Below, one piece after another: positions 5,893 through 62,597 of a stretch of DNA of 64,000 bases. The notes under the pieces are model-generated. The model made no database searches. It was not told the DNA's origin and worked only from the letters and a program-made list of their open reading frames with translations. The position numbers and the translations under genes were made by a program. The stretch's first letter is position 1. Each line of letters starts with the position of its first letter. The DNA is from Candidatus Harrisonbacteria bacterium (GTDB taxonomy: Bacteria; Patescibacteriota; Minisyncoccia; UBA6257; 1-14-0-10-40-38), in the NCBI GenBank assembly GCA_023245035.1, contig JAHFLD010000003.1:55736-119735 (forward strand), written 5' to 3'.

Positions 5893-6829
5893 AGGATTTT
5901 GGTAAATTCCGTGGAGAGTTTTTCCGATTTACTTGCCCACTGATTGTGGGCATTTTTATTATTTCCCCGTCTAGCGTATCTATTGCTTGTGAGCCTATTG
6001 GCATAATGTGATTAGGCGCTATAATTTGTTTATTGAGCGTGAGATTTTAGGGTTATATGAGGTGGGGCCTTCCAAGAAGGTCCAAGCACTGCATCCCAAC
6101 AAAATCCCGCGCTCTTTTTTTTCATCTCTTGGGCGTAGAGACTGTTTCGGTCTATGCCCACAGGGGAGTTGCGAGGGTGTTGACATGCTTTTTGATCTGG
6201 CTATACTTACTTTTACCTAATGAAGATTTTGCGACATACCAGGTGCGGCTCCTGACGTCTGTCTTTTGTTCTCTTCGAGAACTAGCCGCCCGCGAGGCGG
6301 TTTTTCATTAGGGCAATGCGAATGACGCGAAAAGGTTTACGAAATCATTTTTCTGCCTCATACTTCGTGACTCATATATAGGAAGTTCTGCGCTATCTGG
6401 ACTGGAGGATCTCGAGAACAGATAGTGCGGCGCTTAGTCGCACAATTTAAAAACGACTGAACTTTGATAATTTTAGATTGGGTCTTTTGTGTTTTGAAGA
6501 AGAGAGTGATTATATCCGATGCTTTAGTCGGCATCTGGATGATCAATTTGGGATTTGTGGTTAAACGCGCCCGGGATTTATTCCGGGTGTTAAGGGCGTA
6601 TGGTGGATGCCTAGACACAAAGTAGCGATGAAGGACGTGGCGTGGCTGCGATAAGCTTCGGGGAGGTGCTTAGCAACCTTTGATCCGGAGATTTCCGAAT
6701 GGGAAAACCCAATGCGGTAAACCCGCATTACTTCGACCTTGAGTCGAAGTGCTTACCCGCTGAAGTGAAACATCTCAGTAGGCGGAGGAAAAGAAAACAA
6801 TGCCGTTGTGGAACAACGGCGATTCCCTT

Positions 6830-6863
<34 letters not shown>

Positions 6864-6876
6864 TGGTTGTGCTTCG

Positions 6877-6976
6877 CACACTATCAACGAATAGCGAATA
6901 AAAAACCGAATGTACGAATGGATTAAATCCTCATTCGTAAATTCGCAATAGATTCGTAATTCGCTGATGAGCGTGC
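6877..6976 (+). repeat. 100-nt hairpin insertion copy 1 in 23S (helix 9/10 region), IVS-like
   Basis: Identical over 100 nt to the copies at 7475 and 8109. Internally four CGAAT units followed by four ATTCG units, giving a long imperfect hairpin. Flanked by a short copy-specific inverted repeat. Confidence 0.8.
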
Positions 6977-7236
6977 GGAGCGTAGCTGGGGGTTGTAAGG
7001 TAGAGACTTCTTGCTCATCGCCCAGTTCTTGAATAGTCGAGGACTTGGCGATCCGCAGGAAAAGAGTAAAAAATTCGCTAGTTAGCCGAGGCCGTTGGAA
7101 AGCGGCGCCAGAGCGGGTGATAGCCCCGTAGGCGAAAACATGCGAACTCTTGTTTCTATTCTTGAGTACCTCGAGGCAAACAAACCTTGAGGGAATCCGG
7201 GAGTACTATCTCCTAAGGCTGAATATACTTTGTGAT

Positions 7237-7267
<31 letters not shown>

Positions 7268-7474
7268 AAAAAGAACCCCGGAAGGGGAGTGAAATAGAAC
7301 CTGAAACCATATGCTTACAAGGAAGTGGAGCCCAATCTCGTAGCAATACGAGCCGGGTGACGCTGTGCCTATTGAAGAATGAGCCAACGACTTATTCTGT
7401 ACTGCTCATCTAAGCCATCTCTGATGGTGAAGGTAAAGCGAAAGCGAGTCTTAATAGGGCGATGTCGTGCTTCG

Positions 7475-7574
7475 CACACTATCAACGAATAGCGAATAAA
7501 AAACCGAATGTACGAATGGATTAAATCCTCATTCGTAAATTCGCAATAGATTCGTAATTCGCTGATGAGCGTGC
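7475..7574 (+). repeat. 100-nt hairpin insertion copy 2 in 23S at the helix-25 position (E. coli about 540-550), a classical IVS site
   Basis: Inserted between ...TCTTAATAGGGCGATGTC and AAGCAGTACGGGATAGACCCGAAGCC, corresponding to E. coli ...TCTTAACTGGGCG / GGGTATAGACCCGAAACC. Confidence 0.8.
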
Positions 7575-8108
7575 GGGGCACGCACAAGCAGTACGGGATA
7601 GACCCGAAGCCAGACGAGCTTACCCTGGGCAGGATGAAGTCCCGAGAAATCGGGATGGAGGTCCGAACTGGTGGGTTGTGCAAAACCCTCGGATGACCTG
7701 GGGTAGGGAGTGAAAAGCTAATCGAGTTTGGTAATAGCTGGTTCTCTCCGAAATAGTTTTAGGACTAGCGCTTCGTAAAAAGTCGTGAGGGGTAGAGCTA
7801 CTGGTTCGGGGGTATAGGGCGAAAGCTCGACCTTCGAGTCAAACTCCGAATACTCACGATTACGCGAAGTAGTCAGTACGTGGGGGCCAAGCTCCATGTA
7901 CGCAAGGGGAACAGCCCAGATCGCAGTCTAAGGTCCCTAAATTCTTACTAAGTGTTAAAGGTAGTCATCACCCATAGACAGATAGGAGGTTGGCTTAGAG
8001 GTAGCCATCCTTTAAAGAGTGTGTAACAACTCACTATTCGACGGTTGGTGGCGCCAAAAATGTACCGGGGCTAAGTAAGATACCGAAGACGCGGGTGTGT
8101 GTGCGTAG

Positions 8109-8208
8109 CACACTATCAACGAATAGCGAATAAAAAACCGAATGTACGAATGGATTAAATCCTCATTCGTAAATTCGGAATAGATTCGTAATTCGCTGAT
8201 GAGCGTGC
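8109..8208 (+). repeat. 100-nt hairpin insertion copy 3 in 23S at the helix-45 position (E. coli about 1170), a classical IVS site
   Basis: Inserted between ACCGAAGACGCGGG and GGTAGGAGAGC, corresponding to E. coli CACCGAAGCTGCGG ... GGGTAGGGGAGCG. One substitution relative to copies 1 and 2. Confidence 0.8.
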
Positions 8209-8968
8209 TACGCGTACACGCGGTAGGAGAGCATTTCTAGTGCGCTGAAGCGTGAGCCGCGAGGCCGCGTGGAGCGCTAGGAAGAGAGAATGTTGGTATG
8301 AGTAACCACATTTCCTATGAGAAATAGGAACCCCGAAAATCCAAGGTTTCCGTGGCAATGACAATCAACCACGGGTTAGGCGATCCTAAGGCGATGGTGA
8401 AAACCGCAGCTGACGGGAAGCCGGTTAATATTCCGGCCCATGCATATTTGTGCGATGGAGTGACGGAGGAAAAAAGATTGAGCGCCTTAATGGTTTGGCG
8501 TCGGGCGTGTTAAGGGACGTACCCCTGGAAAATCCGGAGTACTGTGTTTAATCACGAGTTCCGCGCACGTACGTAAGGTGAAGTTTTTACTTCGCTAATT
8601 CAATCGAAGAGCCTTCCGAGAAAAACTTCTAAGTTTAGAATATGGATTTCGTACCGTAAACCGACACAGGTGGATAGGGCGAGTAGCCCAAGGGGAACGA
8701 GTGATTCTTCGTTAAGGAACTCGGCAAAAAAGCGGCCGTAAGTTAGCGATAAGGCCTGCCCTTCGCAAGAAGGGCCGCAGCGAAAGTATCTCTGGCGACT
8801 GTTTACCAAAAACACAGCTCCCTGCTAACTCGCAAGAGGATGTATAGGGGGTGACGCCTGACCGATGCGAGAAGGTCAACGGTGGCTGTGCCAGGTAGTT
8901 TACTCTGTCTGGTGCGGACTGCCCGAAGCCCTCGTCAATGTCAGCGATAACTATAATCGTTCTAAGGT

Positions 8969-9167
8969 TCTGTATTGGATTTCGATCTAATGCAGAAGGA
9001 TTGGGACGATTATGGTCTGGTAAAAAGTTTAATATTACATTGGTGCAAAATATAGCTACCTCATCATGCAGTAATGCGTGAATGATCCTACGCGACTCCA
9101 AGAGACTATACGTCGTGCCCCCGTAATTCGGGGTGAAGATATAGTCCTTCGCATAAAGGAAGTGAAG
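8969..9167 (+). other. ORF-less group-I-like intron in 23S near E. coli position 1917
   Basis: Removing 8969-9167 restores CTAAGGT|AGCGCAATTCC, matching E. coli CTAAGGTAGCGAAATTCC. The upstream exon ends in U and the insert ends in G. It contains the group I core segment GAAGATATAGTCC and a GCAGTAATGCGTG block shared with the second intron. Confidence 0.7.
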
Positions 9168-9828
9168 AGCGCAATTCCTTTTCGGGTAAGTTCCGAAGCG
9201 CACGAATGGCGTAACGACTGGAGAACTGTCTCAACGAAGAGCTCGGTGAAAATGCGATACCCGTGAAGACGCGGGTTACCTGCAGCAAGACGAAAAGACC
9301 CCGGAAGCTTTACTGTAGCTTGGTATTGTCTTTAGGATTTATATGCGTAGTGTAGTGGCGAGGATTTGAAGCGTTGATTTCGGTTGACGTGGATCCGACA
9401 ATGAAACAGCCATCTTATGAATTTTAAAGTCTAACCCCGGCGGAAAAAACGCCGCGGGACAGTGCCTGGTGGGCAGTTTTAATGGGGCGTTATCCTCCAA
9501 AAAAGTAACGGAGGAGTTTATTAAGGTTGGCTTAGCCCGGATGGAAATCGGGCCGGACGTGTAAATGCACAAGCCAGCTTAACGGCAAGACCTACAAGTC
9601 GCGCCGGTGCGAAAGCAGAAATTAGTGACCCGACCACTCGTCATAGAAGGGTGGAAGACAACGGATAAAAGTTACTCCGGGGATAACAGGCTAGTCTCCT
9701 CCGAGCGTCCACAGCGACGAGGAGGATCGGCACCTCGATGTCGGCTCGCCCTAGCGCGGGGGTGGAGAAGCTCCCAAGCGTGTGGCTGTTCGCCACTTAA
9801 AAGGGCACGTGAGCTGGGTTCAAACCGT

Positions 9829-10143
9829 TGATGTGCTAATTACACGCCATAGAAGCGTGAATTTATTGGCGCATGAGCGGTTTGAGTCCAGATCCACACA
9901 TCGATTATTGTTTTAGTCTTTTCGTTTCTGAAAAAGTATAGTCATCAATCAAATCACGGCGGTCTTAAGAAGTAATTTTTAAGAACCCAGTTAACTTATT
10001 TCGGTGAAACCCAATGTGGGCAATACCGAGGGAATTCTTTGCGAAGCAAAGATGCCCGTAGAGACTACACGTTAACCCCCTAAATCGCGTAAGCGATCGG
10101 GTGAAGATATAGTCCAATGCACGCAGTAATGCGTGGAAACATG
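9829..10143 (+). other. ORF-less group-I-like intron in 23S near E. coli position 2593
   Basis: Removing 9829-10143 restores GGGTTCAAACCGT|CGTGAGACAGG, matching E. coli GGGTTTAGAACGTCGTGAGACAG. The insert ends in G after a U-ending exon and contains GGGTGAAGATATAGTCC plus GCAGTAATGCGTG. Confidence 0.7.
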
Positions 10144-10260
10144 CGTGAGACAGGTTGGTCTCTATCTGTTGTAGGCGTTAAACACTTGAAGGGAGTCGAC
10201 CCTAGTACGAGAGGACCGGGTTGAACGAACCGCTGGTCGGCCGGCTTTGGTACCAACTGA

Positions 10261-10319
<59 letters not shown>

Positions 10320-10847
10320 ACCCTAAGATGAGGTGTTTTTGCGTGGCGCAAGCTGCGCGAGCGATCGGTCGTAGACCACGACCTTGATAGGCTCTCGGTG
10401 TACGCACAGCAATGTGTTTAGCCATGGAGTACTAATGATCGCAGTTACCCATTTCCCAAATTGATCATCCAGATGCCCATTAGATAAGAGTTCCGCTGGA
10501 ACTTATGTAATGCGGTGTCAGTAAACTTCTTTAAAAAAACAAAAGACAAACCGAGATCCGGAGAAGGGTCTGGCGCGCAAATGCTCTTGTCGGGATAGAT
10601 AATCCGACATCAGTCATCACTTGCCGACTGGCTTCGTCTGTCTAGCGAAGTTTGGTTTTGGCGGTGGCGTTCGGTTTTGGCTCCAGTCTGGTACTGTTAA
10701 TACCATGGCTGTCCGGCCCGAATGTAGCTAAGCATTGAGCACGGTTTTCCTTCTGCGGAGCTTGGTCGTTCCAATCAAACGACCGAGCTCCGCCCTTTCT
10801 CCGGGTTTCGGTGTTAACCTTACGAAAAAGATTTTCTTCAGCGATTT

Positions 10848-10962
10848 CCTGGTGATCTAGCGAAACGTGACCCACCTCTTCCCATTCCGAATAGAGAAGT
10901 GAAAGCGTTTCACTCCGATGATACTTGGCCTTTCGGGGCTCGGGAAAGTAGGATTTGCCGGG
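10848..10962 (+). rRNA. rrf: 5S rRNA
   Basis: CCTGGTGATCTAGCG...CCCACCTCTTCCCATTCCGAATAGAGAAGTGAAAGCG...GGGAAAGTAGGATTTGCCGGG aligns over its whole length to the bacterial 5S consensus (CCCATGCCGAACTCAGAAGTGAAAC...GAGAGTAGG). Lies 400 nt downstream of 23S. Confidence 0.85.
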
Positions 10963-11032
10963 AATTCATTGCAGAAAATTTTTTCCGATATACAGATTTT
11001 TTTATATATCATCATCGTGATAAGATTTGGCA

Positions 11033-37109: not shown

Positions 37110-37150
37110 GTTATCCCTTGACGGATTTGGATATAATATGCTATATTAGC
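37110..37150 (+). promoter_or_regulatory. Putative sigma-70-type promoter for the GC-rich inserted gene
   Basis: TTGACG (37118-37123) followed by TATAAT and TATATT hexamers in an AT-rich stretch. Spacing to either -10 element is non-ideal (8 or 19 nt). Confidence 0.3.
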
Positions 37151-37267
37151 AAATGTTCGTTAGGGCTCTTTTAAAACCGAAAACTGGTCTTTCGAAACAC
37201 TGTGTTTCCGCCAGATTTTGCCATAAAAGAGCTTCGTTTCCGCTCAAACCGGAAGGGTGTGGATTTC

Positions 37268-38023
37268 ATGTCTACGCAAGATTCAAGTCCGTGGGAAAGG
37301 CTGATGAAGCTCATCGCCTCCATCGTTCTTCTGGTCCAAGAGGGGAGTCGGAACCTCAAGGAGGTCATGGAGTTTGCCGACTTCTTTCAGATCGTGAAGG
37401 ACAGGTCGGGATTCTTCGCCGACTTCAAGGCCTTCCTCGCCTCGCGCGCCCTTGGCGCAAAGTCCGAGACGGCTCCCTTCGTCAACTTCGCCTCCATCTG
37501 GAGGCAAGTCTACGTCAAGCTCGGCATCAAAGCCGACTTCTGGGATCTGGCCATTGAATACCGTCCCGGATACTGGCCAATCGTAGTATACGAGGACATG
37601 ACTCCGCAGAAGGTGATGAACGCCATCAAGGGGGCCAATCTCTTCCTCACATGGCAATACGCCACCGATCTTGATGCCGCTATCACCAAGAATGACCGAG
37701 ACCCCAAGACTGGATTCTACGTGGTCTACGTGAAAGCAAGCCAAGAAGCCGACCCCGAGTTCAAGAATCTCTCGGCCAACCAGCTCAAGAAGCAGAACAT
37801 CAAGGGAATCACCCTCCTTGAGCGGATTCTCCTTGAGGTCTTCCACTTCATCCTCTCGGATGGCCAGCATCTAGACATCCAGAGCTTCACGCTCTGCTCC
37901 GGTTCGTGGAACTCCTACGGTAATGTGCCGCACGTGAGCTGGCACGATGGTAAGATGGATGCCAGTTGGCACAATCCTGAGCGTCGGGCTGACTGGCTGC
38001 GGTCTCGAGTAGTAGTTTCGTAG
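37268..38023 (+). CDS. Hypothetical protein with atypical GC-rich codon usage, likely horizontally acquired
   Basis: About 251 aa from the ATG at 37268 (a GTG alternative at 37202). Third codon positions are strongly C/G-biased, unlike neighbouring genes. GGAAGG Shine-Dalgarno-like sequence 12 nt upstream. No recognised motif. Confidence 0.6.
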   Translation: MSTQDSSPWERLMKLIASIVLLVQEGSRNLKEVMEFADFFQIVKDRSGFFADFKAFLASRALGAKSETAPFVNFASIWRQVYVKLGIKADFWDLAIEYRPGYWPIVVYEDMTPQKVMNAIKGANLFLTWQYATDLDAAITKNDRDPKTGFYVVYVKASQEADPEFKNLSANQLKKQNIKGITLLERILLEVFHFILSDGQHLDIQSFTLCSGSWNSYGNVPHVSWHDGKMDASWHNPERRADWLRSRVVVS

Positions 38024-38044
38024 CCCTTCGCTCTTTTCCACTTA

Positions 38045-38076
38045 CGCCCCACACAAATGTGTGGGGCGTTTTCTTA
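38045..38076 (+). terminator. Rho-independent terminator
   Basis: cgccccacac-aaat-gtgtggggcg perfect 10-bp stem followed by TTTTCTT. Confidence 0.7.
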
Positions 38077-46995: not shown

Positions 46996-47451
46996 CTTTT
47001 TCCTATCTCTTATCTCGTACTTCATGTTTCTTTCCCAAAGCTTCTTGACTTTATAAGTCCACCTGTGCTAGGGTCTTTAGGAATGGGTGTTGGTATTCCC
47101 CGACGATGATATCGATGGAGGAATGCTTGATTTACCGATCTATTTGTGGCATTGGCCCCGCGCAAGCGGGGCTTTTGCTTTTTTGGCATATCCAACTTGT
47201 CTTTTCGTGATTTTTTTCGGCGAGGCTACCGCGCGTATTCGTCTTCTTTTCCAATTCCGCAAAAAATCCAGCGTTTTTAAAAAAACTTCTTACTTCTCCA
47301 CTGTGAACGATTTGCGCTTAGACCAGAGCTAATCTAAAATTATTGCAGTGTGCGCTTCGTTAGGCTTTCTTGAGGACTGCTAGGACGCGCACTCATTCAT
47401 TACAAATAGAATTGGAGGTCACCCCTAACAGTCCTCAAGGTAGCGTAGCGT

Positions 47452-48399
47452 TTGGCGAGTATTAATTTTATGTTTGAAGAACATGTTCCTTTGGCGCGTT
47501 ATAGTTATTATAAGATCGGCGGCCCGGCCCGCTATTTTTATCGTCCGAGCACGATAGAGCAACTGACCGAGGGGGTGGAAACTGCCGGTCGGATGGGTTT
47601 GCCGATTTTTGTTTTGGCTGGAGCCACCAATCTTTTGATTCATGACCAGGGTTTTGCCGGGCTGGTTCTAAAGCCGGAGTTATTGGGTATTACCCGTGTG
47701 GGCTATGCGCTTGAGGTCGGCGCCGGAGTGCCAATGCACGATGTTCTGGAATTTGCCGCGGAGCACGGTCTTGCCGGACTGGAATGGGCCGGTGGTTTGC
47801 CGGGAACTTTGGGCGGCGCGATTCGTGGCAATGCCGGCGCTTTTCGTGGCGAGATAAAAGATGCGGTGGCGACGGTGACGAGTGTCGCGACTAATGAGCC
47901 ATATGTTAACTTGCGGACCAGAACCGCTTCCGAGTGCGAGTTCGGTTACCGAACCAGCGTTTTCAAAGGGGCGGCGCGCAAGGAGATTATTATCGGCGCG
48001 ACTTTGGTTTTGCGTCCGGGGGATCCGGCTTTGATTCGCGAGCAAATGAAGGAAAAAATAACCTATCGCGCTCTGCGACATCCGCTAGAGTATCCGAATA
48101 TCGGAAGTATTTTTAAAAATGTTGACTGGCGGGCGGTGCCGTTGGAGCATCAGGAGTTGCTCCGGCCGCATCTTAAAACCGATCCTTTTCCGGTGGTGCC
48201 GGTGGCGTATTTGATTTCGCAGACCGGTTTGCGTGGTGTGGCGAACGGGGGAGTGATGATCTCGCCAAAACATCCTAATTTTATTGTGAATGTTTTAAAT
48301 GGTCGCGCCGCCGAAGTTCGCGGTCTGATTCAGTTGGTAAAGGAATCGGTAGGTGAAAAATTCGGAATTCAACTTGAAGAGGAGGTTGTGTCGGTTTAG
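47452..48399 (+). CDS. murB: UDP-N-acetylenolpyruvoylglucosamine reductase
   Basis: FAD-binding YKIGGPA...FVLAGATNLL and the MurB C-terminal domain. 315 aa. Confidence 0.85.
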   Translation: MASINFMFEEHVPLARYSYYKIGGPARYFYRPSTIEQLTEGVETAGRMGLPIFVLAGATNLLIHDQGFAGLVLKPELLGITRVGYALEVGAGVPMHDVLEFAAEHGLAGLEWAGGLPGTLGGAIRGNAGAFRGEIKDAVATVTSVATNEPYVNLRTRTASECEFGYRTSVFKGAARKEIIIGATLVLRPGDPALIREQMKEKITYRALRHPLEYPNIGSIFKNVDWRAVPLEHQELLRPHLKTDPFPVVPVAYLISQTGLRGVANGGVMISPKHPNFIVNVLNGRAAEVRGLIQLVKESVGEKFGIQLEEEVVSV

Positions 48400-48529: not shown

Positions 48530-48883
48530 ATGAACATCAACATTAAGGCGACGCAGGTGGATTTAACACCGGCACTCAAAGAGTATGTGGAAGAAAAGTT
48601 TGGATCATTAGCCAAGTTTCTTAAGCGATGGGAGGCCGAGTCTCCGGTGGAGGTCTGGGTGGAGGTGGCGCGAACCACGCGACATCATCACAAGGGCGAG
48701 GTATTCCGAGCGGAGGGGGATGTTAAAGTTCCGGGATATATCTTTCGGGCGACGGAGGAGGATTCGGATATTCGTTCGGCGGTTGATCGGGTTCGTGACA
48801 AGTTGCAGGCGGAGATTGTTAAGTATAAGGAGATGCATACCGACTCTAAGCGGGGTGTGTCGACAGATCCTGGCCAAAAATAG
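48530..48883 (+). CDS. hpf: Ribosome hibernation-promoting factor (RaiA/HPF, short form)
   Basis: MNINIKATQVDLTPALKEYVEEKF..L..........V.V.....HHHKGEVFRAE..V matches the HPF/YfiA signature. ATG at 48530; the listed ORF has a spurious N-terminal extension. Confidence 0.85.
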   Translation: MNINIKATQVDLTPALKEYVEEKFGSLAKFLKRWEAESPVEVWVEVARTTRHHHKGEVFRAEGDVKVPGYIFRATEEDSDIRSAVDRVRDKLQAEIVKYKEMHTDSKRGVSTDPGQK

Positions 48884-49011
48884 TAAATTTTTAGTTCTTG
48901 GGATTAGTTTTCCACAGCCCTTGACATGGCTTGAAGTCTAGTGCTACTATTGCCAAGTACCTTGAAATCGTTTTTTGTACTTTTTTCCATTCCAATGGGA
49001 GGCGGTTCTTT

Positions 49012-49854
49012 ATGCTGGCTGATCGCAGGGAAAAGTTCTGGATGCTGGGAGTATTGGTTCTTATGGGCTTGGCCGCTTGGCTGTGCCTCAAGTCCAATAA
49101 TGTCTCTAATAACTCTCCGGTTTCGGTGCTTACGGGCGACGAGTCGCGGCAAAAGATTGCCGCTCCGGTTTGCGGACACGAGTCGCTGATCGGTGAGTTG
49201 CGCGGCAAGATCGCTGATCTTGAGCGCCAGCTCGCTGAAGAAAAGGCGTTGACTCGCAAGTTCCTTCTCGAGAGCCTTGAGGCCAAGAAGGAGCGCGATG
49301 AGGCGCTTGCGGCATTGAAGGCCGTTCGGAATGCCGAGGGTGAACGAACAGAAAAGACAAAAGATCGCTTCCGCGATCTCTTGGACGGCTTGAACGCGAT
49401 TAAGGATCCCGCCGAGCGCGAAGTCGCAAGATTTCGTTTGAAGCGTGATCTGGAGGAGCAGTTCTGGCCGTTGCTCGTGGCGTACGGTGATCCCCTCAAA
49501 GCTCTCGATGTCTTTGGGCTTGTAACGAGCATCAGAGATTCGGGAGAGGTTGGGGGAATCACGGTGGAGAGTCTGGCAAAGGCCGAGGGTGTTACCGCCC
49601 AGCCGGAGACTCAAAGCCCGCTTGTGGCCGACATCCGCCGTGTTGGCGGTGTCCGGCAGTACTGGGAGAAACGGATGGACGAGATCTTCGAAGGCCGAGG
49701 CGCGAAAGCGATTTCGGATATGAGGAACCTCTATCCACTCCCCGAGGGAATCAAAAGCCCCAGCGAAATGATTCCCCTCGAAGACCCAAGGAGCATCGCG
49801 AGACGGGATTGGCAATTGCGCAATCCATTCCCGCCTTGCTTCTGGGAGGACTGA
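49012..49854 (+). CDS. Hypothetical membrane-anchored coiled-coil protein, GC-rich with atypical codon usage
   Basis: ATG at 49012 with GGAGGCGG upstream. TM helix (WMLGVLVLMGLAAWLCL), then coiled-coil (IADLERQLAEEKALTRKF...), then a C-terminal globular part. Confidence 0.5.
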   Translation: MLADRREKFWMLGVLVLMGLAAWLCLKSNNVSNNSPVSVLTGDESRQKIAAPVCGHESLIGELRGKIADLERQLAEEKALTRKFLLESLEAKKERDEALAALKAVRNAEGERTEKTKDRFRDLLDGLNAIKDPAEREVARFRLKRDLEEQFWPLLVAYGDPLKALDVFGLVTSIRDSGEVGGITVESLAKAEGVTAQPETQSPLVADIRRVGGVRQYWEKRMDEIFEGRGAKAISDMRNLYPLPEGIKSPSEMIPLEDPRSIARRDWQLRNPFPPCFWED

Positions 49855-49871
49855 ACCTGAGGAGGTTCTTC

Positions 49872-50216
49872 ATGAGGATCCTTTCCGCTCTTCTCGTCGT
49901 GGGATTGCTCGCGTCGTTCGCGAGCGCCCAAACCTCGTCCATCCGCATCGCTGGATCCAACGGTGGCCACACCGCCACCTTCTCCGGGTCCACCAGCACG
50001 ACTCCGGGGAGCGCGCTCCTCGGCGTGAGTGGGACGGTCACCATCGATGGCACCGTCTACACCCTTGGCACGCAGCTGCCGGGGATGGGCGGCAGCAACC
50101 CCGAACGCGGTATTTGGTGCTACAAGTGGAAGCTCTCCAATGGAGAGACGTTTACCTTGTGGCGAGGTTGCTCCGGCGGAACCGGCGGGTTCGTCGGTAC
50201 CATCAAGCTGACCTAA
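49872..50216 (+). CDS. Small secreted Gly/Thr/Ser-rich protein, GC-rich with atypical codon usage
   Basis: Strong Shine-Dalgarno GAGGAGG 8 nt upstream of the ATG. Signal peptide MRILSALLVVGLLASFASAQ, a 114-aa mature part rich in G/T/S with 2 Cys. Confidence 0.55.
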   Translation: MRILSALLVVGLLASFASAQTSSIRIAGSNGGHTATFSGSTSTTPGSALLGVSGTVTIDGTVYTLGTQLPGMGGSNPERGIWCYKWKLSNGETFTLWRGCSGGTGGFVGTIKLT

Positions 50217-50263
50217 GGGTTGGCTGACGCTCTCTTGGAGACGTCCAGGAGTAGCGACACAGG

Positions 50264-50304
50264 CCCCCGACGCGATAAAATCGCGTCGGGGGTGTTCTTT
50301 TTTT
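50264..50304 (+). terminator. Rho-independent terminator
   Basis: cccccgacgcgat-aaaa-tcgcgtcggggg 13-bp stem followed by TGTTCTTTTTTT. Confidence 0.75.
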
Positions 50305-50385
50305 AAAAGTGCGGTGGACTTGGCGAGATTTTCTGAAATAAATGACAATTTGCGATTTGCCTGAATTAAAGTAGAATATACCCAC

Positions 50386-52746
50386 ATGTTGCGACGATTG
50401 TTGGGGATTTTTGGTACCCGGCCGACCGGACAGGCCGATGTTTCTTTGATTAACGCCCTGGAGCCCGAGTTGCGGGATTTTTCCGGTGAGCGTTTACGGG
50501 ATGAGAGTAAGAAGTTGGCTGATGAAATCAAGGGTGTTGCCGAAGAAGGTTTGTTTGCCGAACTCACGCGACATTTGCCGCGAGCTTTTGCCTTGGTCCG
50601 CGAGGCGGCGCGACGAACGCTCAATCAGCGTCATTTTGATGTTCAACTCATGGGCGGCATGGCTTTGTTTGAGGGAAAGATTGTGGAGATGCGAACCGGC
50701 GAGGGAAAGACTTTGGCCGCCACCGCGCCAGCTTATCTGCATGCCTTGGCTGGTCGCGGAGTTCACGTGGTAACCGTCAATGAGTATTTGGCCAAACGTG
50801 ACGCGGTTTGGATGGGACAGGTTTATCACGCGCTTGGCCTTTCGGTGGCTTGCTTGGTGCACGAGGGAGCTTTGATGTATGACCCGCATTATCGGATCGC
50901 CGATGCCGAGGCCCGAGCCGCGGATGTCGCGCGGGACGCGACCGGAGCTTTTTTGGTTCACCAGGAGTATCTGCGCCCGGTTTCTCGGCGCGAGGCTTAT
51001 CTGGCGGATATTACTTATGGCACCAATCATGAGTTTGGTTTTGATTATTTGCGAGACAATTTGGCATATTCGCCGCAGGCGCAGGTTCAGCGCGGACACC
51101 ATTACGCGATTATTGACGAGGTGGATAGTATTTTGATTGATGAGGCGAGAACGCCGCTTATAATTTCCGCGCCGGATCAAGAATCAAGTTCTTACTACAA
51201 GACCTTTGCCCGCTTGGTGGCTAACTTGGCGCCGGCAGAGGATTACACGGTGGACGAAAAACTTCGTTCGGCCGACATTACCGAATCGGGAATCAATAAA
51301 GTTGAGCGAGCGCTCAATTTAAAAAATATTTTTGATCCGGAAAATTTGCGCCTGACGCACTATTTGCAGGAAAGTTTGCGCGCCAAGGCCTTGTTTTTAA
51401 AGGATCGGGATTATGTAGTTAAGGACGGACAGATTGTGATTGTCGATCAATTCACAGGACGATTGATGGTTGGCCGGCGTTATTCGGGCGGTTTGCATCA
51501 GGCGATTGAGGCCAAAGAGGGCGTTTTGGTTCAACAGGAATCCCGAACTTACGCTCAAGTTTCCATTCAGAATTATTTTCGTCTTTACCGCAGGTTGGGC
51601 GGCATGACCGGCACGGCGCAAACCTCGGCCGAAGAGTTTGATAAGGTTTACAAGTTGGAGGTGGTGACCGTCCCGACTCATCGCCCAATGGTTCGTAAAG
51701 ACGAGCCGGATCTGATTTATAAAAATTTAGAGGCGAAGTACGCGGCGATTATCGCCGACATTCGCGCGCGACACGAAAAGGGCCAACCGGTTTTAATCGG
51801 CACGGTGTCCATCGAAAAAAATGAAGAACTTTCAAGGCGGTTAACTCGAGCCGGTTTGCCCCACGAAGTTTTGAACGCCAAAAATAACGAGCGCGAGGGT
51901 TCGATTATTGCTCAGGCGGGGCGAGCGGGAGCGATTACGGTCGCGACCAACATGGCCGGGCGGGGAGTGGATATTATTTTGGGCGGTAATCCACCGGAGG
52001 CGCAATCGGCGGAAAAAGTTAAAACTGCCGGTGGCTTGCATGTGGTGGGCACGGAGCGGCACGAGTCGCGGCGTATTGATAACCAGTTGCGGGGGCGCGC
52101 GGGGCGGCAGGGCGATCCGGGCTCGTCGCAATTCTTCCTTTCGCTCGAAGATGACTTGATGCGAATTTTTGGCGGTGGACGCATTAAGGGACTAATGGAG
52201 CGGCTTAACGTGCCGGAAGATATGCCAATTCAGGCGAATCTTCTGAATCGGGCTATTTCACAGGCGCAGGCCAAGGTGGAGGGGGCTAACTTTGATTCAC
52301 GAAAGCATTTACTGGATTATGACGATGTCTTAAACAAGCAAAGGACGGCGATTTATAAGAAGCGACAGGAGTTGCTTTCGGCCAACGTTCCCCAGCCGGT
52401 ACTGGGCGCTTTGGATATGTTTTGGATGAATCACCTGGAGGATATGGAGGCGCTGGCGGAGTCGGTGCGGCTTCGGGCTTATGGCCAGCATGATCCACTG
52501 GTGGAATATCGACGCGAAGGGCATGGATTTTATCAGACCATGTTGCGAAATTTTGAGGAGTGGCAAATAGAAAACGCGGAAAAACTCGCGGGGTTACCAA
52601 CGAATAACGAATCTGGCGCGAACCTTTCTCTTGCGTCAACCCTAAACCCTTTACCCTCAACCCCGAAATCAGATACAAAGCGCAACGATCCTTGCCCCTG
52701 CGGGAGCGGGAAAAAGTTCAAGAAGTGCCATGGGCTAAACCAATAA
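50386..52746 (+). CDS. secA: Preprotein translocase ATPase SecA
   Basis: DEAD-motor blocks (MRTGEGKTL; HVVTVNEYLAKRD; DEVDSILIDEARTPLIIS; TGMAGRGVDI), C-terminal zinc finger CPCGSGKKFKKCHG. 786 aa. Confidence 0.95.
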   Translation: MLRRLLGIFGTRPTGQADVSLINALEPELRDFSGERLRDESKKLADEIKGVAEEGLFAELTRHLPRAFALVREAARRTLNQRHFDVQLMGGMALFEGKIVEMRTGEGKTLAATAPAYLHALAGRGVHVVTVNEYLAKRDAVWMGQVYHALGLSVACLVHEGALMYDPHYRIADAEARAADVARDATGAFLVHQEYLRPVSRREAYLADITYGTNHEFGFDYLRDNLAYSPQAQVQRGHHYAIIDEVDSILIDEARTPLIISAPDQESSSYYKTFARLVANLAPAEDYTVDEKLRSADITESGINKVERALNLKNIFDPENLRLTHYLQESLRAKALFLKDRDYVVKDGQIVIVDQFTGRLMVGRRYSGGLHQAIEAKEGVLVQQESRTYAQVSIQNYFRLYRRLGGMTGTAQTSAEEFDKVYKLEVVTVPTHRPMVRKDEPDLIYKNLEAKYAAIIADIRARHEKGQPVLIGTVSIEKNEELSRRLTRAGLPHEVLNAKNNEREGSIIAQAGRAGAITVATNMAGRGVDIILGGNPPEAQSAEKVKTAGGLHVVGTERHESRRIDNQLRGRAGRQGDPGSSQFFLSLEDDLMRIFGGGRIKGLMERLNVPEDMPIQANLLNRAISQAQAKVEGANFDSRKHLLDYDDVLNKQRTAIYKKRQELLSANVPQPVLGALDMFWMNHLEDMEALAESVRLRAYGQHDPLVEYRREGHGFYQTMLRNFEEWQIENAEKLAGLPTNNESGANLSLASTLNPLPSTPKSDTKRNDPCPCGSGKKFKKCHGLNQ

Positions 52747-53024: not shown

Positions 53025-53903
53025 CTAATCGCAGAAGCAGAATTCCGGCTGGACGGCTGTTTGACCGCAGGTGACTGGAATGGAGGTGTTGGCAACTGTG
53101 ACGCCGCCGGTGGAGCACTGCAGGCCGTGCGCCGAACAGACGCTGGTACAGGAGGTCGCGCCGAAGATGGCAATGACTTGATAACCGCGGCCGCCGCCGT
53201 CGTAATTGGCGGCTTCGTTTACTTGACCGTTAACAATGGAGTAATTATTCAAATAGAGACTTTTCCATTGGGTGCCCGAGCTGCCAAGATCGTAAAGCGG
53301 CGGGGTGCCGGCTGGAATAAGATTGGAATCAAAAGTTGCGGCCGAGACACGGGTGGCGGCGGAGGTTACTTGGCGCTGGGCGCTGTAGGCGGGATTGGTG
53401 GTGTTGTATTGCAGGGTGATGTTGATTTGCACCAGGTCGTGTCCGGGAGGGGAGCTGAACTTGGTATAGACCAAACCTCCGGCTGGAACGGTAACCGCGT
53501 CGGTGGTAAGTACTCTGGCGGCGGGGAAATTACATTGAGCCGGATCGGTTAGCGAGGCGCCTTCGGCGATCTTGATGGCGCCAAGCTCGGCGTAAACGCA
53601 GGTTGGATCCTTGAGGCGATCCTTCATCCGAAGTTTGAGGACGTTGCGAGTCGTTCCGGTCTGGGCGTCATTGTTGCTAAAATCGTCGTTAACAATGACC
53701 GCGCTTGATTCGCGCACCAACTGTTGGATTCGTTGCATAGACAAGTTCAGCTGGCTGGTGACTTCGCTTGACGAAGATTGGCGAACTTGCACTTTGGTTG
53801 CCGTGCTTAAAATATTGGCGAAGAGAGTTGCCATCACGGTTGTGATGCCCATGTAGATTAATAGTTCCAGCAAACTAAAACCGCTTTGGTGGTTGGGCCT
53901 CAT
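53025..53903 (-). CDS. Type IV pilin-like protein with prepilin N-terminal cleavage/methylation domain
   Basis: N-terminus MRPNHQSG|FSLLELLIYMGI is a class III signal peptide with the G-F-x-x-x-E motif. C-terminus carries 8 Cys in 40 aa. Confidence 0.7.
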   Translation of the reverse strand: MRPNHQSGFSLLELLIYMGITTVMATLFANILSTATKVQVRQSSSSEVTSQLNLSMQRIQQLVRESSAVIVNDDFSNNDAQTGTTRNVLKLRMKDRLKDPTCVYAELGAIKIAEGASLTDPAQCNFPAARVLTTDAVTVPAGGLVYTKFSSPPGHDLVQINITLQYNTTNPAYSAQRQVTSAATRVSAATFDSNLIPAGTPPLYDLGSSGTQWKSLYLNNYSIVNGQVNEAANYDGGGRGYQVIAIFGATSCTSVCSAHGLQCSTGGVTVANTSIPVTCGQTAVQPEFCFCD

Positions 53904-59466: not shown

Positions 59467-59574
59467 AAGTGGTTTCAAAGCTCGGGTTTTTACCCGGGCT
59501 TTTTTATTGGCGCATCACTTTCTATTTATCGTTTTTTGTGGTATTTTTTTTCTGTTCTGTGAGAGATTTTTTTT

Positions 59575-59645
59575 GCCCCTTTAGCTCAATGGCAGAGCGA
59601 TGCTTTTGTAAAGCATGGATGTCAGTTCGATTCTGACAAGGGGCT
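59575..59645 (+). tRNA. tRNA-Thr (anticodon TGT), no encoded CCA
   Basis: Acceptor GCCCCTT/AAGGGGC, D-arm GCTCAATGGCAGAGC, anticodon stem ATGCT/AGCAT with loop TTTGTAA, T-loop GTTCGATTC. Confidence 0.85.
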
Positions 59646-59684
59646 CAAATTTATTAGTTTTGAGTACCTTCACCAAAGGGGGTA

Positions 59685-60128
59685 TTGTGGTATTATGTAG
59701 AATGCATGGATACTTGTATGGGTTGCAGAAAAACTCTTTCTGAGCGTCATCAAGTTAAATATTGTTCGAATAAATGTCAGACTGATTATCAATATAAATA
59801 CTGGGTGAAGCGCTGGAAGAATGGTTTTGTGAGTGGGGGTGTCGGAATTACTGTAAGAACTGTTTCTTCTCATTTAAAGCGGTACTTGAGCGAAAAATTT
59901 AATGATCGCTGTTCTATGTGTTGTTGGAATAAAAGACATCCAATAACTGGCGTTGTCCCTTTAGAAATTGATCACATCGATGGGAATGCAGAGAATAATA
60001 TTGAAAGAAATTTGAGACTACTTTGTCCGAATTGCCATGCCTTGACCCCTTTTTATAAGAATCTTAATAAGGGCAATGGGAGAAAATGGCGTATGGATAA
60101 ATATCTTCGCAACAAACCTACTAAATAA
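59685..60128 (+). CDS. HNH endonuclease
   Basis: Two CxxC pairs and the HNH core EIDHIDGN...N...NLRLLCPNCHA. The gene is markedly AT-rich relative to its surroundings and starts 40 nt after tRNA-Thr(UGU). Confidence 0.75.
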   Translation: MWYYVECMDTCMGCRKTLSERHQVKYCSNKCQTDYQYKYWVKRWKNGFVSGGVGITVRTVSSHLKRYLSEKFNDRCSMCCWNKRHPITGVVPLEIDHIDGNAENNIERNLRLLCPNCHALTPFYKNLNKGNGRKWRMDKYLRNKPTK

Positions 60129-60173
60129 TACTTAAGATTTGAGAGCCGACTCCAGGTTTAGCTTGGTCTCTCT

Positions 60174-60719
60174 TTGTCTCTGTTCAATATTCATATGAAC
60201 CAGCCCCTTGTAATCAAAACTTTTGTGGCGATAAAAAATATCCGCTATTTGAATGTTTTTAACCGCCCAGCGCGAGGCCAGGCGATGGTCGGTATAATTA
60301 TATTTTCATTTTCGATTTGGTTTCTTGCTAATTCGGAGTTGGGGATCGGATTATATCTTTTTTTTGGTGTGGTTTTTGCGGTGACTTTTTATATCGCGGT
60401 GGTCCAGGTAATTAGGTTAAGACCCGGAATTATTGAGGCCACGGCCCGGGGGAATCTATTTGAGACCGAGAGATCTTACGATGGAACCAAAACTTTTTCT
60501 TCAAAAATACCCTCCATTGGCGGAGTTGTTGGCGTGGCTTTGTACGCCTTTCTTTCGCGTTTTGAGAATTCTGTTGTGGCTGGAGCCTTGCTTGGAATTA
60601 TTATGACCATAGGGCCTGCTTTGATTTTAGGCGTTAGTCTTGCCTATATTTATCTGGAACATAAGATTCAACGCCAGATATTGGTGCAGAGATATGAGGT
60701 TCTGAAAGTTAAGGAGTGA
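60174..60719 (+). CDS. Hypothetical membrane protein
   Basis: 181 aa with 4 hydrophobic helices. No motif recognised. Confidence 0.4.
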   Translation: MSLFNIHMNQPLVIKTFVAIKNIRYLNVFNRPARGQAMVGIIIFSFSIWFLANSELGIGLYLFFGVVFAVTFYIAVVQVIRLRPGIIEATARGNLFETERSYDGTKTFSSKIPSIGGVVGVALYAFLSRFENSVVAGALLGIIMTIGPALILGVSLAYIYLEHKIQRQILVQRYEVLKVKE

Positions 60720-60816
60720 GCTCGGGGAATAACTTGGAGCTATCAAGCGAGTGCGCTCATTGAAAGATTTGGCTATTTTACCTATACTCTCTGGAGTTCT
60801 TTGTGATTGCTGTTTT

Positions 60817-60871
60817 GCCAATGTAGCTCAGATGGTAGACCCGCCTGCCGGACGGGCAGGGCAACTCCATG
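60817..60871 (+). pseudogene. Partial 5' copy of tRNA-Thr(GGU): nt 1-34 interrupted by a 21-nt palindromic insert
   Basis: 60817-60839 is identical to nt 1-23 of the intact tRNA at 61120, and 60861-60871 is identical to nt 24-34 (GCAACTCCATG). The 21-nt insert CCCGCCTGCCGGACGGGCAGG (60840-60860) forms a hairpin. The sequence then diverges into the GIY-YIG ORF. Confidence 0.8.
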
Positions 60872-61129
60872 TATTATGTTTATGTTCTTAAAAGCTTAAG
60901 TGATCAAAAGCATTACACTGGAATGTCTATTGATCTTGAAAAAAGACTACGAAAGCATAATCGCGGCGCCAAGGGAACTCCATCAACTCGATCTCGCGGC
61001 CCGTTCTCATTAGTTTATTGCGAGAGAGTAGCTACTAGGGTAGAAGCAAGAAGAAGGGAGAAGTTTTTGAAATCAGGATTTGGCAGGGAGTTTATAAAGA
61101 ATTTTGTTGAAAAAGATTTGCCAATGTAG
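60869..61129 (+). CDS. Minimal GIY-YIG nuclease-domain protein (86 aa)
   Basis: MYYVYVLKS...HYTGMS.DLEKRLRKHN matches the GIY-YIG catalytic core (GIY..YIG..R..H.N). The start codon is the ATG of the tRNA anticodon-loop copy, and the stop TAG lies inside the first 10 nt of the intact tRNA-Thr. AT-rich. Confidence 0.7.
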   Translation: MYYVYVLKSLSDQKHYTGMSIDLEKRLRKHNRGAKGTPSTRSRGPFSLVYCERVATRVEARRREKFLKSGFGREFIKNFVEKDLPM

Positions 61130-61195
61130 CTCAGATGGTAGAGCAACTCCATGGTAAGGAGTAGGTCGCCGGTTCAATTCCGGCCATTGGCTCCA
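61120..61195 (+). tRNA. tRNA-Thr (anticodon GGT), CCA encoded
   Basis: GCCAATG TA GCTCAGATGGTAGAGC A ACTCC ATGGTAA GGAGT AGGTC GCCGGTTCAATTCCGGC CATTGGC T CCA. Confidence 0.9.
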
Positions 61196-61394
61196 AGATC
61201 AGCGCCGTAATTTCACCGGTTCCCGGTTGCCGCTTTGGGGCGGCATTGCGATTTCTAAACGCTCAAGCCTTCGCGTAGAAATCGGGAACAATTCCGGCCA
61301 TTGGCTCCACCGGAAATGAAAGAAGGATGGGTCGGAGGGGTCGTTTTTTGTTTTTCTTGCTTTTTTGATCCCGATGTTTTAGAGTGTTCTAACT

Positions 61395-61565
61395 ATGTCC
61401 GAATCCAAGTTTTCTAAAAATCTCATTAAATTGCGCTGTGGCACCTGTAAGCGATTTAATTATTACACGCGCAAGAATGTGAAGCTGGTAACGCGCAAAA
61501 TTGAGTTGAGTAAGTTTTGCAAGTTTTGCCGGAAACATACCACCCACAAGGAGGCGAAGAGGTAG
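61395..61565 (+). CDS. rpmG: 50S ribosomal protein L33
   Basis: Translates to MSESKFSKNLIKLRCGTCKRFNYYTRKNVKLVTRKIELSKFCKFCRKHTTHKEAKR, the L33 CxxC...CxxC zinc ribbon. 56 aa, below the ORF-track cutoff. Confidence 0.8.
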   Translation: MSESKFSKNLIKLRCGTCKRFNYYTRKNVKLVTRKIELSKFCKFCRKHTTHKEAKR

Positions 61566-61681
61566 GATTTTTATTAAGTCTAGAAATATAGCGAGTTAGT
61601 TATCGCGGATTTTTTTTAGGGTCTTGGTTGCCTAGCTTTTTTGTTTGGGTTAGGCTTGTTATTGGGTATCTTTTATAGTCT

Positions 61682-61752
61682 GGGAGCTTAAGTAAGTGGC
61701 ATACTGGCGGTCTCCAAAACCGCACTCGGGGGTTCGATTCCCTCAGCTCCCG
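61682..61752 (+). tRNA. tRNA-Trp (anticodon CCA), no encoded CCA end
   Basis: Acceptor GGGAGCT/AGCTCCC, anticodon stem GCGGT/ACCGC with loop CTCCAAA, T-loop GGTTCGATTCC. Confidence 0.85.
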
Positions 61753-61760
61753 CAGTAGAT

Positions 61761-61964
61761 ATGAATTTCATTTGCTCAATTCTAGATGTTTTTATTATAC
61801 CGCTTAGCTATCTATTTATCATCCCTCTATCTTTGGGCATTGCGTATGATAGTCTAAAATCTAAAGATGAATCAAAACGAGAGAAGTTTTTTATTTTTGG
61901 CTTATTAGCTTGGTTTGTCGGTGGGCTGTCCTATGGTGAGTCGCCCGTTAGTTTTTGTTCTTGA
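61761..61964 (+). CDS. Hypothetical small AT-rich membrane protein
   Basis: 67 aa, two hydrophobic segments, AT-rich. Possibly spurious. Confidence 0.25.
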   Translation: MNFICSILDVFIIPLSYLFIIPLSLGIAYDSLKSKDESKREKFFIFGLLAWFVGGLSYGESPVSFCS

Positions 61965-62264
61965 TTTTTTTCTATTTGGCGTCCAGGTCTTATTTACTTT
62001 TTTTCTTATGGCGTGTTAGCTTTAATATAGCTTTTATTCTTATGAACAAAAAAACTAAAGTTGCTCGGAAGAAGCATCGCAGAAAGCAGGGGAGGAAAGT
62101 TCCTTCTTTGCGACATCGATAAACTAAGACCGCCCTATTGTGTTGGGGCGGTTTTAGTTTGGGATTAAAAAAAATTGTGCTGTTCCGTTTTTTAGGAAGC
62201 TCCGATGTTGCAATCGGAGCACTTGTTGTTTCTAAACTCGCTACGTTCGTTAAGAAAAACTAAG

Positions 62265-62336
62265 TGCGCGTGGAAGGAATCGAACCTTCGACCCCAGTCT
62301 TATCAGGACTGTGCTCTACCACTGAGCTACACGCGC
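62265..62336 (-). tRNA. tRNA-Ile (anticodon GAT)
   Basis: Reverse complement GCGCGTG TA GCTCAGTGGTAGAGC A CAGTC CTGATAA GACTG GGGTC GAAGGTTCGATTCCTTC CACGCGC A. Confidence 0.85.
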
Positions 62337-62378
62337 GTTATTTTTTTATGCTTTGCGTATTACGGGTGCTTGGTGGAT

Positions 62379-62597
62379 CTATTGTGGCGTAACATGATCC
62401 ACGGCCTGTTTGAGAGCCGAGACGTCCAAAGTTTCACCAATTTGGGTTTTTGGGGTTTTTCCCGAGAGTGCGTCGCTCGTTTCTCGCATGAGTGTTCGCA
62501 CTGATTGGATAGTATATCCCAGGAGAATTAAAAGTAAAATACTGGCGATTACCCAGAGTATGGTTTCGTTTCGCTTGGGCGTGATGTCTTTAAGCAT
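62379..62597 (-). CDS. Hypothetical small bitopic membrane protein
   Basis: 72 aa, one TM helix (ILWVIASILLLILLGYTI). Lies directly downstream of the PilO-like gene. Confidence 0.4.
   Translation of the reverse strand: MLKDITPKRNETILWVIASILLLILLGYTIQSVRTLMRETSDALSGKTPKTQIGETLDVSALKQAVDHVTPQ

Follow-up and report, generated by a model that had tools for sequence, protein, structure and literature searches.

The 64-kb stretch of DNA analysed here (the window) comes from a groundwater Paceibacteria genome (Parcubacteria, a 'Harrisonbacteria'-like member of the Candidate Phyla Radiation, CPR) and raises the question of what two GC-rich open reading frames (ORFs), here called ORF1 and ORF2, are doing between hpf and secA, and how they came to be there. 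A sequence-only reading of the window had placed them at 49012-49854 and 49872-50216, and independent gene calls agree with this placing, as the same pair (280 and 114 amino acids) was called in public assemblies of the same genome. We found that the pair is an insertion. It probably represents a lineage-specific bicistronic accessory operon of the cell envelope or surface, which would have been inserted at the hpf-secA junction in the common ancestor of two sister species and retained vertically; we hold this reading with fair, not high, confidence.

To obtain insight into the distribution of the pair, the sequences of murB, hpf, ORF1, ORF2 and secA were searched by tblastn against the loci of 80 relatives. 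The hpf-secA junction without the insert was found in abundance: in 39 relatives, whose SecA proteins are 53-72% identical, hpf lies upstream of secA on the same strand, in most of them with a gap of about 30-460 nucleotides (nt). ORF1 and ORF2 were absent from all the relatives' loci searched in this way except that of the sister species, these 39 junctions included. This bears out the earlier description of the pair as an insert at the hpf-secA junction, a self-contained unit of two genes with an atypical composition, and the wider family can do without the module. The sole homologues lie on a 3-kb Hainich contig of the sister species (L001), where the order hpf, ORF1, ORF2, secA is the same. 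Amino acid identity of SecA between the two species is about 89-90%, the nearest entry in a one-genome-per-species set of GTDB being a Hainich groundwater metagenome-assembled genome (MAG) at 89%, and all remaining SecA relatives, which are Paceibacteria or Patescibacteria MAGs, are at most 72% identical. Among about 15 billion proteins, homologues of the pair were again found in one sister species only, at the same position. Furthermore, a word-indexed search of 5.8 billion clusters yielded none beyond the own genome and the sister species, scans of IMG/VR and of JGI contigs yielded nothing beyond the sister species, and phmmer searches with both proteins, covering every ORF of the window and of 89 loci, yielded no paralogues. 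When the ORF1 profile was run with full HMMER on 1.84 billion representatives, nothing was returned except the orthologue and protein P0005 (E=4e-5). The latter was rejected as a homologue, as it is a repetitive coiled-coil protein in which only the heptad stretch VCG(H/R)xxLI...DLE(R/E)Q matches, and the match was judged compositional.

Comparison of the two species shows that ORF1 and ORF2 are real genes under purifying selection, since the ratio of nonsynonymous to synonymous substitution (dN/dS) is 0.20 for ORF1 and 0.14 for ORF2 (0.06 for secA) and the substitutions peak at the third codon position (mismatches at the first, second and third positions 70/56/133 in ORF1 and 17/16/58 in ORF2). 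Start codons, stops and Shine-Dalgarno (SD) sites are kept in the sister species as well. Synonymous divergence (dS) amounts to 1.33 for ORF1 and 1.18 for ORF2, and to 1.0-1.6 for seven neighbouring genes, among them secA, Bac_transf, GT4, rpsB, tsf and a hypothetical gene. As the dS of the pair equals that of its flanks, the pair was already present in the common ancestor and has diverged together with them; its gain is thus old, preceding the species split, with vertical inheritance since. About two thirds of the synonymous sites have turned over since the split, and the recent transfer implied by the sequence-only reading does not fit an insert of this age.

The arrangement of signals around the pair shows it to be one operon, because the best promoter and the best terminator of the 47-53 kb region bracket it, the spacer between the two ORFs is only 17 nt long and contains the SD site of ORF2, and the layout is kept in L001 (Table 1). 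No promoter or terminator signal was found between the ORFs. The sigma-70-type promoter is the top-scoring one of that region and, according to the alignment, is kept in the sister species, and the leader behind it showed no significant structure (fold z-scores +0.6 and -0.5). With a generic anti-SD sequence, the 16S gene lying outside the window, the predicted pairing of the SD sites is -10.2 kcal/mol for ORF1 and -12.2 kcal/mol for ORF2, the strongest two among 43 gene starts, 36 of which pair weaker than -5 kcal/mol; the earlier remark that strong SD sites are rare elsewhere in the window is therefore well founded. The terminator said to close the pair was also recovered, with a stem of 14 pairs where 13 bp had been counted; 10 of the 14 pairs are G-C and TTCTTTTTT follows. 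Its pairing is preserved at 100% in both species, with compensatory double changes at 5 of the 14 pairs in the sister species. L001 also has a hairpin at the place of the first 3' hairpin, with a different sequence. An Rfam scan of 48.3-50.5 kb gave nothing relevant. On the right side of the insert, 8 nt separate the end of the secA -10 box from the ATG at 50386, a distance that implies an mRNA without a leader, and hpf on the left side, host-like in composition with a third-position GC content (GC3) of 0.585, has no SD site and carries TATTAAT immediately 5' of its ATG. Leaderless mRNAs are indicated for most housekeeping genes, as these lack an SD site and a TAnAAT box stands 12-15 nt in front of their ATG; starts of this type include 31112, 38122, 45185, 50386 and 55706, and the genes include secA, proS, rpoA, tpiA and rpsB.

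Table 1. Features of the hpf-secA locus, the 37-kb cassette and the ORFans found at the same junction in relatives. Positions are those of the window unless a relative's locus is named.
Feature	Position	Strand	Basis or remark
murB	47452-48399		upstream of hpf
hpf, ribosome hibernation factor	48530-48883	+	upstream flank; Pfam PF02482 Ribosomal_S30AE, E=3.9e-17
Putative operon promoter, sigma-70 type: TTGACA, 18 nt, TACTAT	48921-48950	+	10/12 match; TG before -10 box
Inferred 5' leader, ~55 nt	48957-49011	+	~90% identical in sister species
ORF1 SD site GGGAGGCG	48997-49004	+	9 nt before ATG; GGGAGCGG at same place in L001
ORF1, 280 amino acids	49012-49854	+	gene calls; dN/dS; alignment with protein P0002
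ORF2 SD site GAGGAGG	49859-49865	+	6 nt before ATG; identical in L001
ORF2, 114 amino acids	49872-50216	+	gene calls; dN/dS
First 3' hairpin	50225-50259	+	folding; just upstream of terminator
Intrinsic terminator: 14-pair stem, 3-nt loop, U tract	50263-50303 (stem 50263-50293)	+	folding z=-6.7
Putative secA promoter: TTGCGA, 16 nt, TAGAAT	50350-50377	+	marks right edge of insert; same arrangement in L001
secA	50386-52746	+	downstream flank; Pfam SecA domains
37-kb cassette	37118-38072		promoter TTGACG, 18 nt, TATATT; leader ~120 nt; ORF 37268-38023; terminator
ORFan at junction, L009	558-1067		
ORFan at junction, L017	4716-5916		
ORFan at junction, L021	5477-5839		
ORFan at junction, L022	5383-5865		
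ORFan at junction, L039	5041-5920		

Both proteins are expected to leave the cytoplasm. ORF1 has a basic N-terminus, MLADRREK, followed by the hydrophobic stretch FWMLGVLVLMGLAAWLCLK (segment of residues 9-27, Kyte-Doolittle value KD19 1.97), which forms a hydrophobic helix without a signal-peptidase site; the same pattern is present in protein P0002, and the structural model has a helix at residues 3-29. ORF1 is thus predicted to be a type II signal-anchor membrane protein, with an N-in/C-out orientation following from the positive-inside rule. The transmembrane (TM) segment is followed by a variable linker and then by the motif VCGHExLIGEL, which is invariant and passes into a long helix or coiled coil (about residues 56-128), and the C-terminal half is all-alpha in the model, with a conserved NPFPPxFWED at its end. 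ORF2 begins with a Sec-type signal, MRILSALLVVGLLASFASA/Q (about residues 1-20, ending ASA/QT), and the mature part of about 94 amino acids contains 21% Gly, 17% Thr and 12% Ser and amphipathic beta-hairpins. It is predicted to be a Sec-secreted all-beta protein, probably a small up-and-down beta-barrel. The outline given by the sequence-only reading, a TM helix with coiled coil and a globular, here helical, domain for ORF1 and a signal peptide with a Gly/Thr/Ser-rich protein for ORF2, agrees with the sequences and with the secondary structure of low-confidence AlphaFold models, which is beta in ORF2. Its proposal of an adhesin is not supported, as ORF2 has no LPXTG sorting signal, lipobox or C-terminal TM segment (its end is ...GGFVGTIKLT) and nothing in Pfam, NCBIfam, PHROGs, PADLOC or the PDB matched it. 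Scans of ORF1, ORF2 and the ORF at 37268-38023 (hereafter the 37-kb ORF) with Pfam, PHROGs, NCBIfam and PADLOC gave no meaningful match, sequence searches of the PDB with the ORF1 and ORF2 profiles gave only chance or coiled-coil matches, Foldseek found no PDB match below E=0.5 for either model, and a literature search returned nothing pertinent.

Taken together, a bicistronic unit equipped with a promoter, leader, SD sites and terminator of its own would have entered the permissive hpf-secA junction between two transcription units and would then have been inherited vertically under purifying selection in both sister species. Both products would be exported, topology and export being read from the protein sequences: ORF1 might expose a coiled-coil stalk with an all-alpha head outside the cell, ORF2 would be secreted, and the stalk may hold ORF2 or work with it there as a cell-envelope or surface module. 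The two are probably partners, judging from their conserved adjacency and SD-coupled spacing. Members of the CPR are regarded as episymbionts in which surface and secreted proteins mediate host contact, and most such proteins are ORFans. The pair would offer a clean, datable case of a lineage-specific envelope module kept under purifying selection.

The composition of the pair is central to the question of its origin. GC3 is 0.655 in ORF1 and 0.80 in ORF2, compared with a host median of about 0.55, and elsewhere in the window only the 37-kb ORF (0.72-0.74) exceeds 0.65. The shift was tested by site-class counts at four-fold and two-fold sites versus host genes. At four-fold sites, ORF2 (p=3e-6) and the 37-kb ORF (p=1e-4) deviate from the host plus-strand genes and ORF1 does not (p=0.2; chi-square); ORF1 deviates solely at pyrimidine-ending two-fold codons, with a C/(C+T) of 28/49 versus 836/2534 in the host. 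The compositional anomaly is strong in ORF2 and modest in ORF1. In pairwise comparisons of four-fold sites ORF2, ORF1 and the 37-kb ORF are similar (p=0.29-0.32), but ORF1 versus ORF2 gives p=0.03. The atypical GC-rich codon usage described in the sequence-only reading is confirmed. A former minus-strand location was considered as the cause of the C-rich third positions and rejected: the four-fold sites resemble minus-strand host genes but the two-fold sites do not, and since C and G are both enriched at the two-fold sites of ORF1, ORF2 and the 37-kb ORF, a pattern seen in neither host strand class, a simple strand inversion fails to explain the composition. GC3-rich codons as a mark of highly expressed surface genes were rejected as well, because neither ribosomal-protein genes nor the pilin homologues of 11 relatives are rich in GC3. 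Moreover, the genes for ribosomal proteins, RNA polymerase and EF-Ts do not show the bias, so ordinary translational selection is no explanation. The L001 orthologues are also high in GC3 (0.64 for ORF1, 0.74 for ORF2; L001 secA 0.49). At four-fold sites conserved between the two species, the third base is identical in 49-51% of cases in the pair versus 28-32% expected from independent draws, and in 54% versus 27% in secA.

Several observations weigh against an acquired envelope module. No donor lineage was found and homologues are limited to the two sister species; the neighbourhood holds no mobility genes and no flanking direct or inverted repeats, nor is there a tRNA near the insertion site, and no boundary motif or k-mers are common to the cassettes that occupy this junction in other relatives (described below). 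Loss of the pair in the other lineages is formally possible. The AlphaFold2 models, built from two-sequence alignments, are of low confidence (pLDDT, the predicted local distance difference test, 56 for ORF1 and 54 for ORF2), and no homology supports a specific function or an interaction between ORF1 and ORF2. Furthermore, the promoter of the pair is of the host's own type, and GC3 stays high in both species, with only about 25-32% of the conserved four-fold sites unchanged beyond chance. Rough arithmetic puts the ancestral GC3 from which passive amelioration would have had to start at about 0.93-0.98 in ORF2 but only at about 0.73-0.76 in ORF1, unequal values that are awkward for a single donor. 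This suggests that the GC3 bias is, at least partly, maintained and gene-specific, which fits better than a fading donor signature.

The same observations feed the possibility that the genes are native, either ancestral with losses elsewhere or born in this lineage, and that their GC3-rich, SD-led character is kept by selection and is no foreign mark. High GC3 in both species despite extensive synonymous turnover, a host-type promoter with an extended -10 box, and the GC3-richness of the 37-kb family in seven CPR hosts whatever the GC3 of the host, which suggests a gene-intrinsic bias, are all in line with it. We nevertheless regard it as unlikely, as the pair is missing in 39 relatives, where the junction is empty or filled by unrelated genes, and as the unbiased ribosomal-protein, RNA polymerase and EF-Ts genes make ordinary translational selection insufficient.

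Another proposal, implied by the sequence-only reading, is a recent horizontal transfer of the pair and the 37-kb insert from one GC-rich donor. ORF1, ORF2 and the 37-kb ORF are all enriched in C and G at third positions relative to the host, resemble each other at four-fold sites to the degree given above, and each comes with a promoter, an SD-like site and a terminator of its own; but their loci, family spread and divergence history differ, and we consider a common donor improbable. While the pair shows the dS of its flanks and occupies the same locus in the sister species, the sister-species copy of the 37-kb ORF lies at another locus and is 53% identical. The 37-kb family comprises 67 homologues, all from CPR (Parcubacteria, Magasanikbacteria, Falkowbacteria, Paceibacterota), with copies at different housekeeping junctions in different genomes, the window copy standing at the rseP/proS junction; the pair has no other homologues. 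All family copies examined, in seven CPR hosts, are GC3-rich relative to their host (GC3 of copy/host 0.58/~0.36, 0.59/0.45, 0.69/0.55, 0.71/0.50, 0.81/0.50 and 0.92/0.55). The window copy is a mosaic, in which the 5' part is like the sister-species allele and the 3' part and terminator are like the allele of another genome; the terminator is 100% identical to that other allele, the proteins 60%. No donor lineage was identified for the transfer. The 37-kb ORF is thus mobile and recombines within CPR; ORF1-ORF2, by contrast, is stably inherited at one locus and found in two species only. A shared donor is therefore unsupported, and the pair and the 37-kb insert were gained at different times. 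The leader of the 37-kb ORF is 84-90% identical to that of its sister-species paralogue (proteins 53%). Distant parts of this leader pair with each other (GCTCTTTTA...TAAAAGAGC), so that it may function as a cis-regulatory RNA. In another genome (GCA_030647465.1, L093 7130-9280), a homologue of the 37-kb ORF and two small ORFs lie between rpsJ (S10) and rplC (L3) and break an otherwise conserved ribosomal-protein operon, the homologue having a GC3 of 0.81 versus 0.50 in its host.

The analysis of the relatives revealed that the hpf-secA junction is a recurrent slot for unrelated GC3-rich cassettes. In L009, L017, L021, L022 and L039, unrelated ORFans are located immediately upstream of secA on the opposite strand, with a GC3 of 0.74-0.86 compared with host medians of 0.47-0.59 (0.67-0.86 for the ORFans at the positions in Table 1), and in L017 and L039 there is a tandem of two. 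Every cassette comes with a leader, an SD site, a strong terminator and a promoter close to the consensus TTGACA...TGnTAnAAT, an architecture like that of phage morons but found here in a chromosome. L009 and L022 share a lipoprotein-like gene with a weak PHROG match, and the other ORFans of the slot had no match in Pfam-like libraries. Just downstream of hpf, two of the nearest outgroups, L006 (1312-1551, minus strand) and L022 (3236-3508, minus strand), have a small conserved minus-strand ORF with the motif ...RQV(D/E)LI(G/N)KIW(E/K)EL... that the window lacks.

As a tentative and, taken as a whole, rather doubtful generalization, these Paceibacteria could carry a distinct pool of self-contained cassettes that settle at boundaries of transcription units (hpf-secA, and even S10-L3 in a ribosomal-protein operon). 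Each would combine a promoter of the TTGACA/TGnTAnAAT consensus with a long leader, a strong SD site, a GC3-rich ORFan or CPR-only gene and a strong terminator. On this view the GC3-rich codon usage, which appears to be maintained and not eroded, would suggest a second, SD-led expression regime alongside leaderless housekeeping genes; ORF1-ORF2 would have joined the pool long ago and become domesticated, and the 37-kb ORF would be a member that is still mobile and recombining. Taken alone, the pair is an ordinary accessory islet of new protein families, and the recurrent cassette pattern is the more interesting result: GC3-rich, SD-led cassettes that recur at one junction and have a long-lasting codon bias give a testable handle on the gain of accessory genes in tiny genomes, and the pattern bears on the coexistence of two modes of translation initiation in cells with mostly leaderless housekeeping genes.

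The pair has partial counterparts among known systems. Morons, described in lambdoid phages, are extra genes with their own promoter and terminator and a deviant composition, located between genes that are adjacent in relatives; the pair resembles them as a dispensable promoter-gene(s)-terminator unit of atypical composition between genes that are neighbours in relatives, but it lies in a CPR chromosome among housekeeping genes (murB, hpf, secA) and not in a prophage, there are no phage genes nearby, and it had no PHROG or IMG/VR match. With horizontally acquired ORFan islets it shares lineage restriction, atypical GC3 and a position at an intergenic junction; unlike them, it came with no integrase, tRNA, direct repeats or donor that could be found, and its composition has not drifted toward the host despite long residence. 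The stacking of unrelated small genes at one site in relatives, two in tandem in L017 and L039, recalls integron cassette arrays, but the cassettes of the slot have their own promoters, no attC-like shared boundary motif and no integrase in the loci examined.

As for the function of the pair, ORF2 could be a beta-barrel of the PliC/MliC/ACP lysozyme-inhibitor or avidin type that guards the episymbiont's cell wall, with ORF1 as its membrane partner. We judge this quite improbable. ORF2 differs from these periplasmic inhibitors and 8-stranded avidin-like barrels in having no match to the sequence families, the signature motifs were not seen, and the ORF2 model is of low confidence. Still less probable is that ORF2 acts as a Sec-dependent bacteriocin and ORF1 as its cognate immunity or accessory protein in the membrane. 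A small, secreted, Gly-rich product encoded beside a membrane-protein gene would suit such a system, and the sequence-only reading had described ORF2 as bacteriocin-like, with two Cys residues, but both are replaced in the orthologue (C83 by R, C100 by A), no bacteriocin or immunity family matched, no transporter or processing gene lies nearby, and purifying selection with vertical inheritance in two species is unusual for such loci. The remnant of a phage lysis cassette encoding a two-component spanin is effectively ruled out: an N-terminal TM segment with coiled coil (type II ectodomain protein, the i-spanin) followed by a gene for a small signal-peptide protein (o-spanin) recalls the Rz/Rz1 layout, but ORF2 lacks a lipobox Cys, the pair shows no homology to spanins, no PHROG match and nothing in IMG/VR, and no holin, endolysin, other lysis gene or phage gene is nearby; moreover, as the CPR are described as having no outer membrane, there would be nothing for a spanin to act on. 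That ORF1 and ORF2 are chance open frames in GC-rich DNA, an idea lent some colour by long antisense ORFs (303 and 297 amino acids) at the locus, which are by-products of the GC-rich third positions, is refuted by the dN/dS of 0.14-0.20, the third-position peak of substitutions and the conserved SD, start and stop signals.

Other features of the window were noted. A pilin-like gene at 53025-53903 (minus strand) with an N-terminal methylation motif has a GC3 of 0.65 (C3, the share of C at third positions, 0.48) and is 95% identical to its sister-species counterpart, with a dS of 0.65, about half of the local baseline of about 1.2; its homologues in 11 other relatives are not GC3-rich. Possible reasons are that the two species exchanged the gene at a later time or that selection on its codons is strong. 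Between a SIMPL-domain gene and murB, a strong promoter-like site at 47045-47074 (TTGACT...TGCTAGGGT) is followed by a good terminator at 47154-47173; the region 47045-47173 had no Rfam match and could encode a small RNA of about 90 nt instead of the called ORF of 81 amino acids. The 23S rRNA gene (6585-10452) is 3868 nt long compared with a 2925-nt model and contains a group I intron (9936-10136) and further inserted sequence; the 5S gene lies at 10848-10963, and no 16S gene is present in the window. Finally, the low-GC stretch at 59500-62500 (0.37-0.45), with four tRNA genes and small AT-rich ORFs, among them a GIY-YIG-like ORF at 60869-61129 with a GC3 of 0.32, forms a compositional island of another kind, which deviates in the direction opposite to that of the GC-rich inserts.

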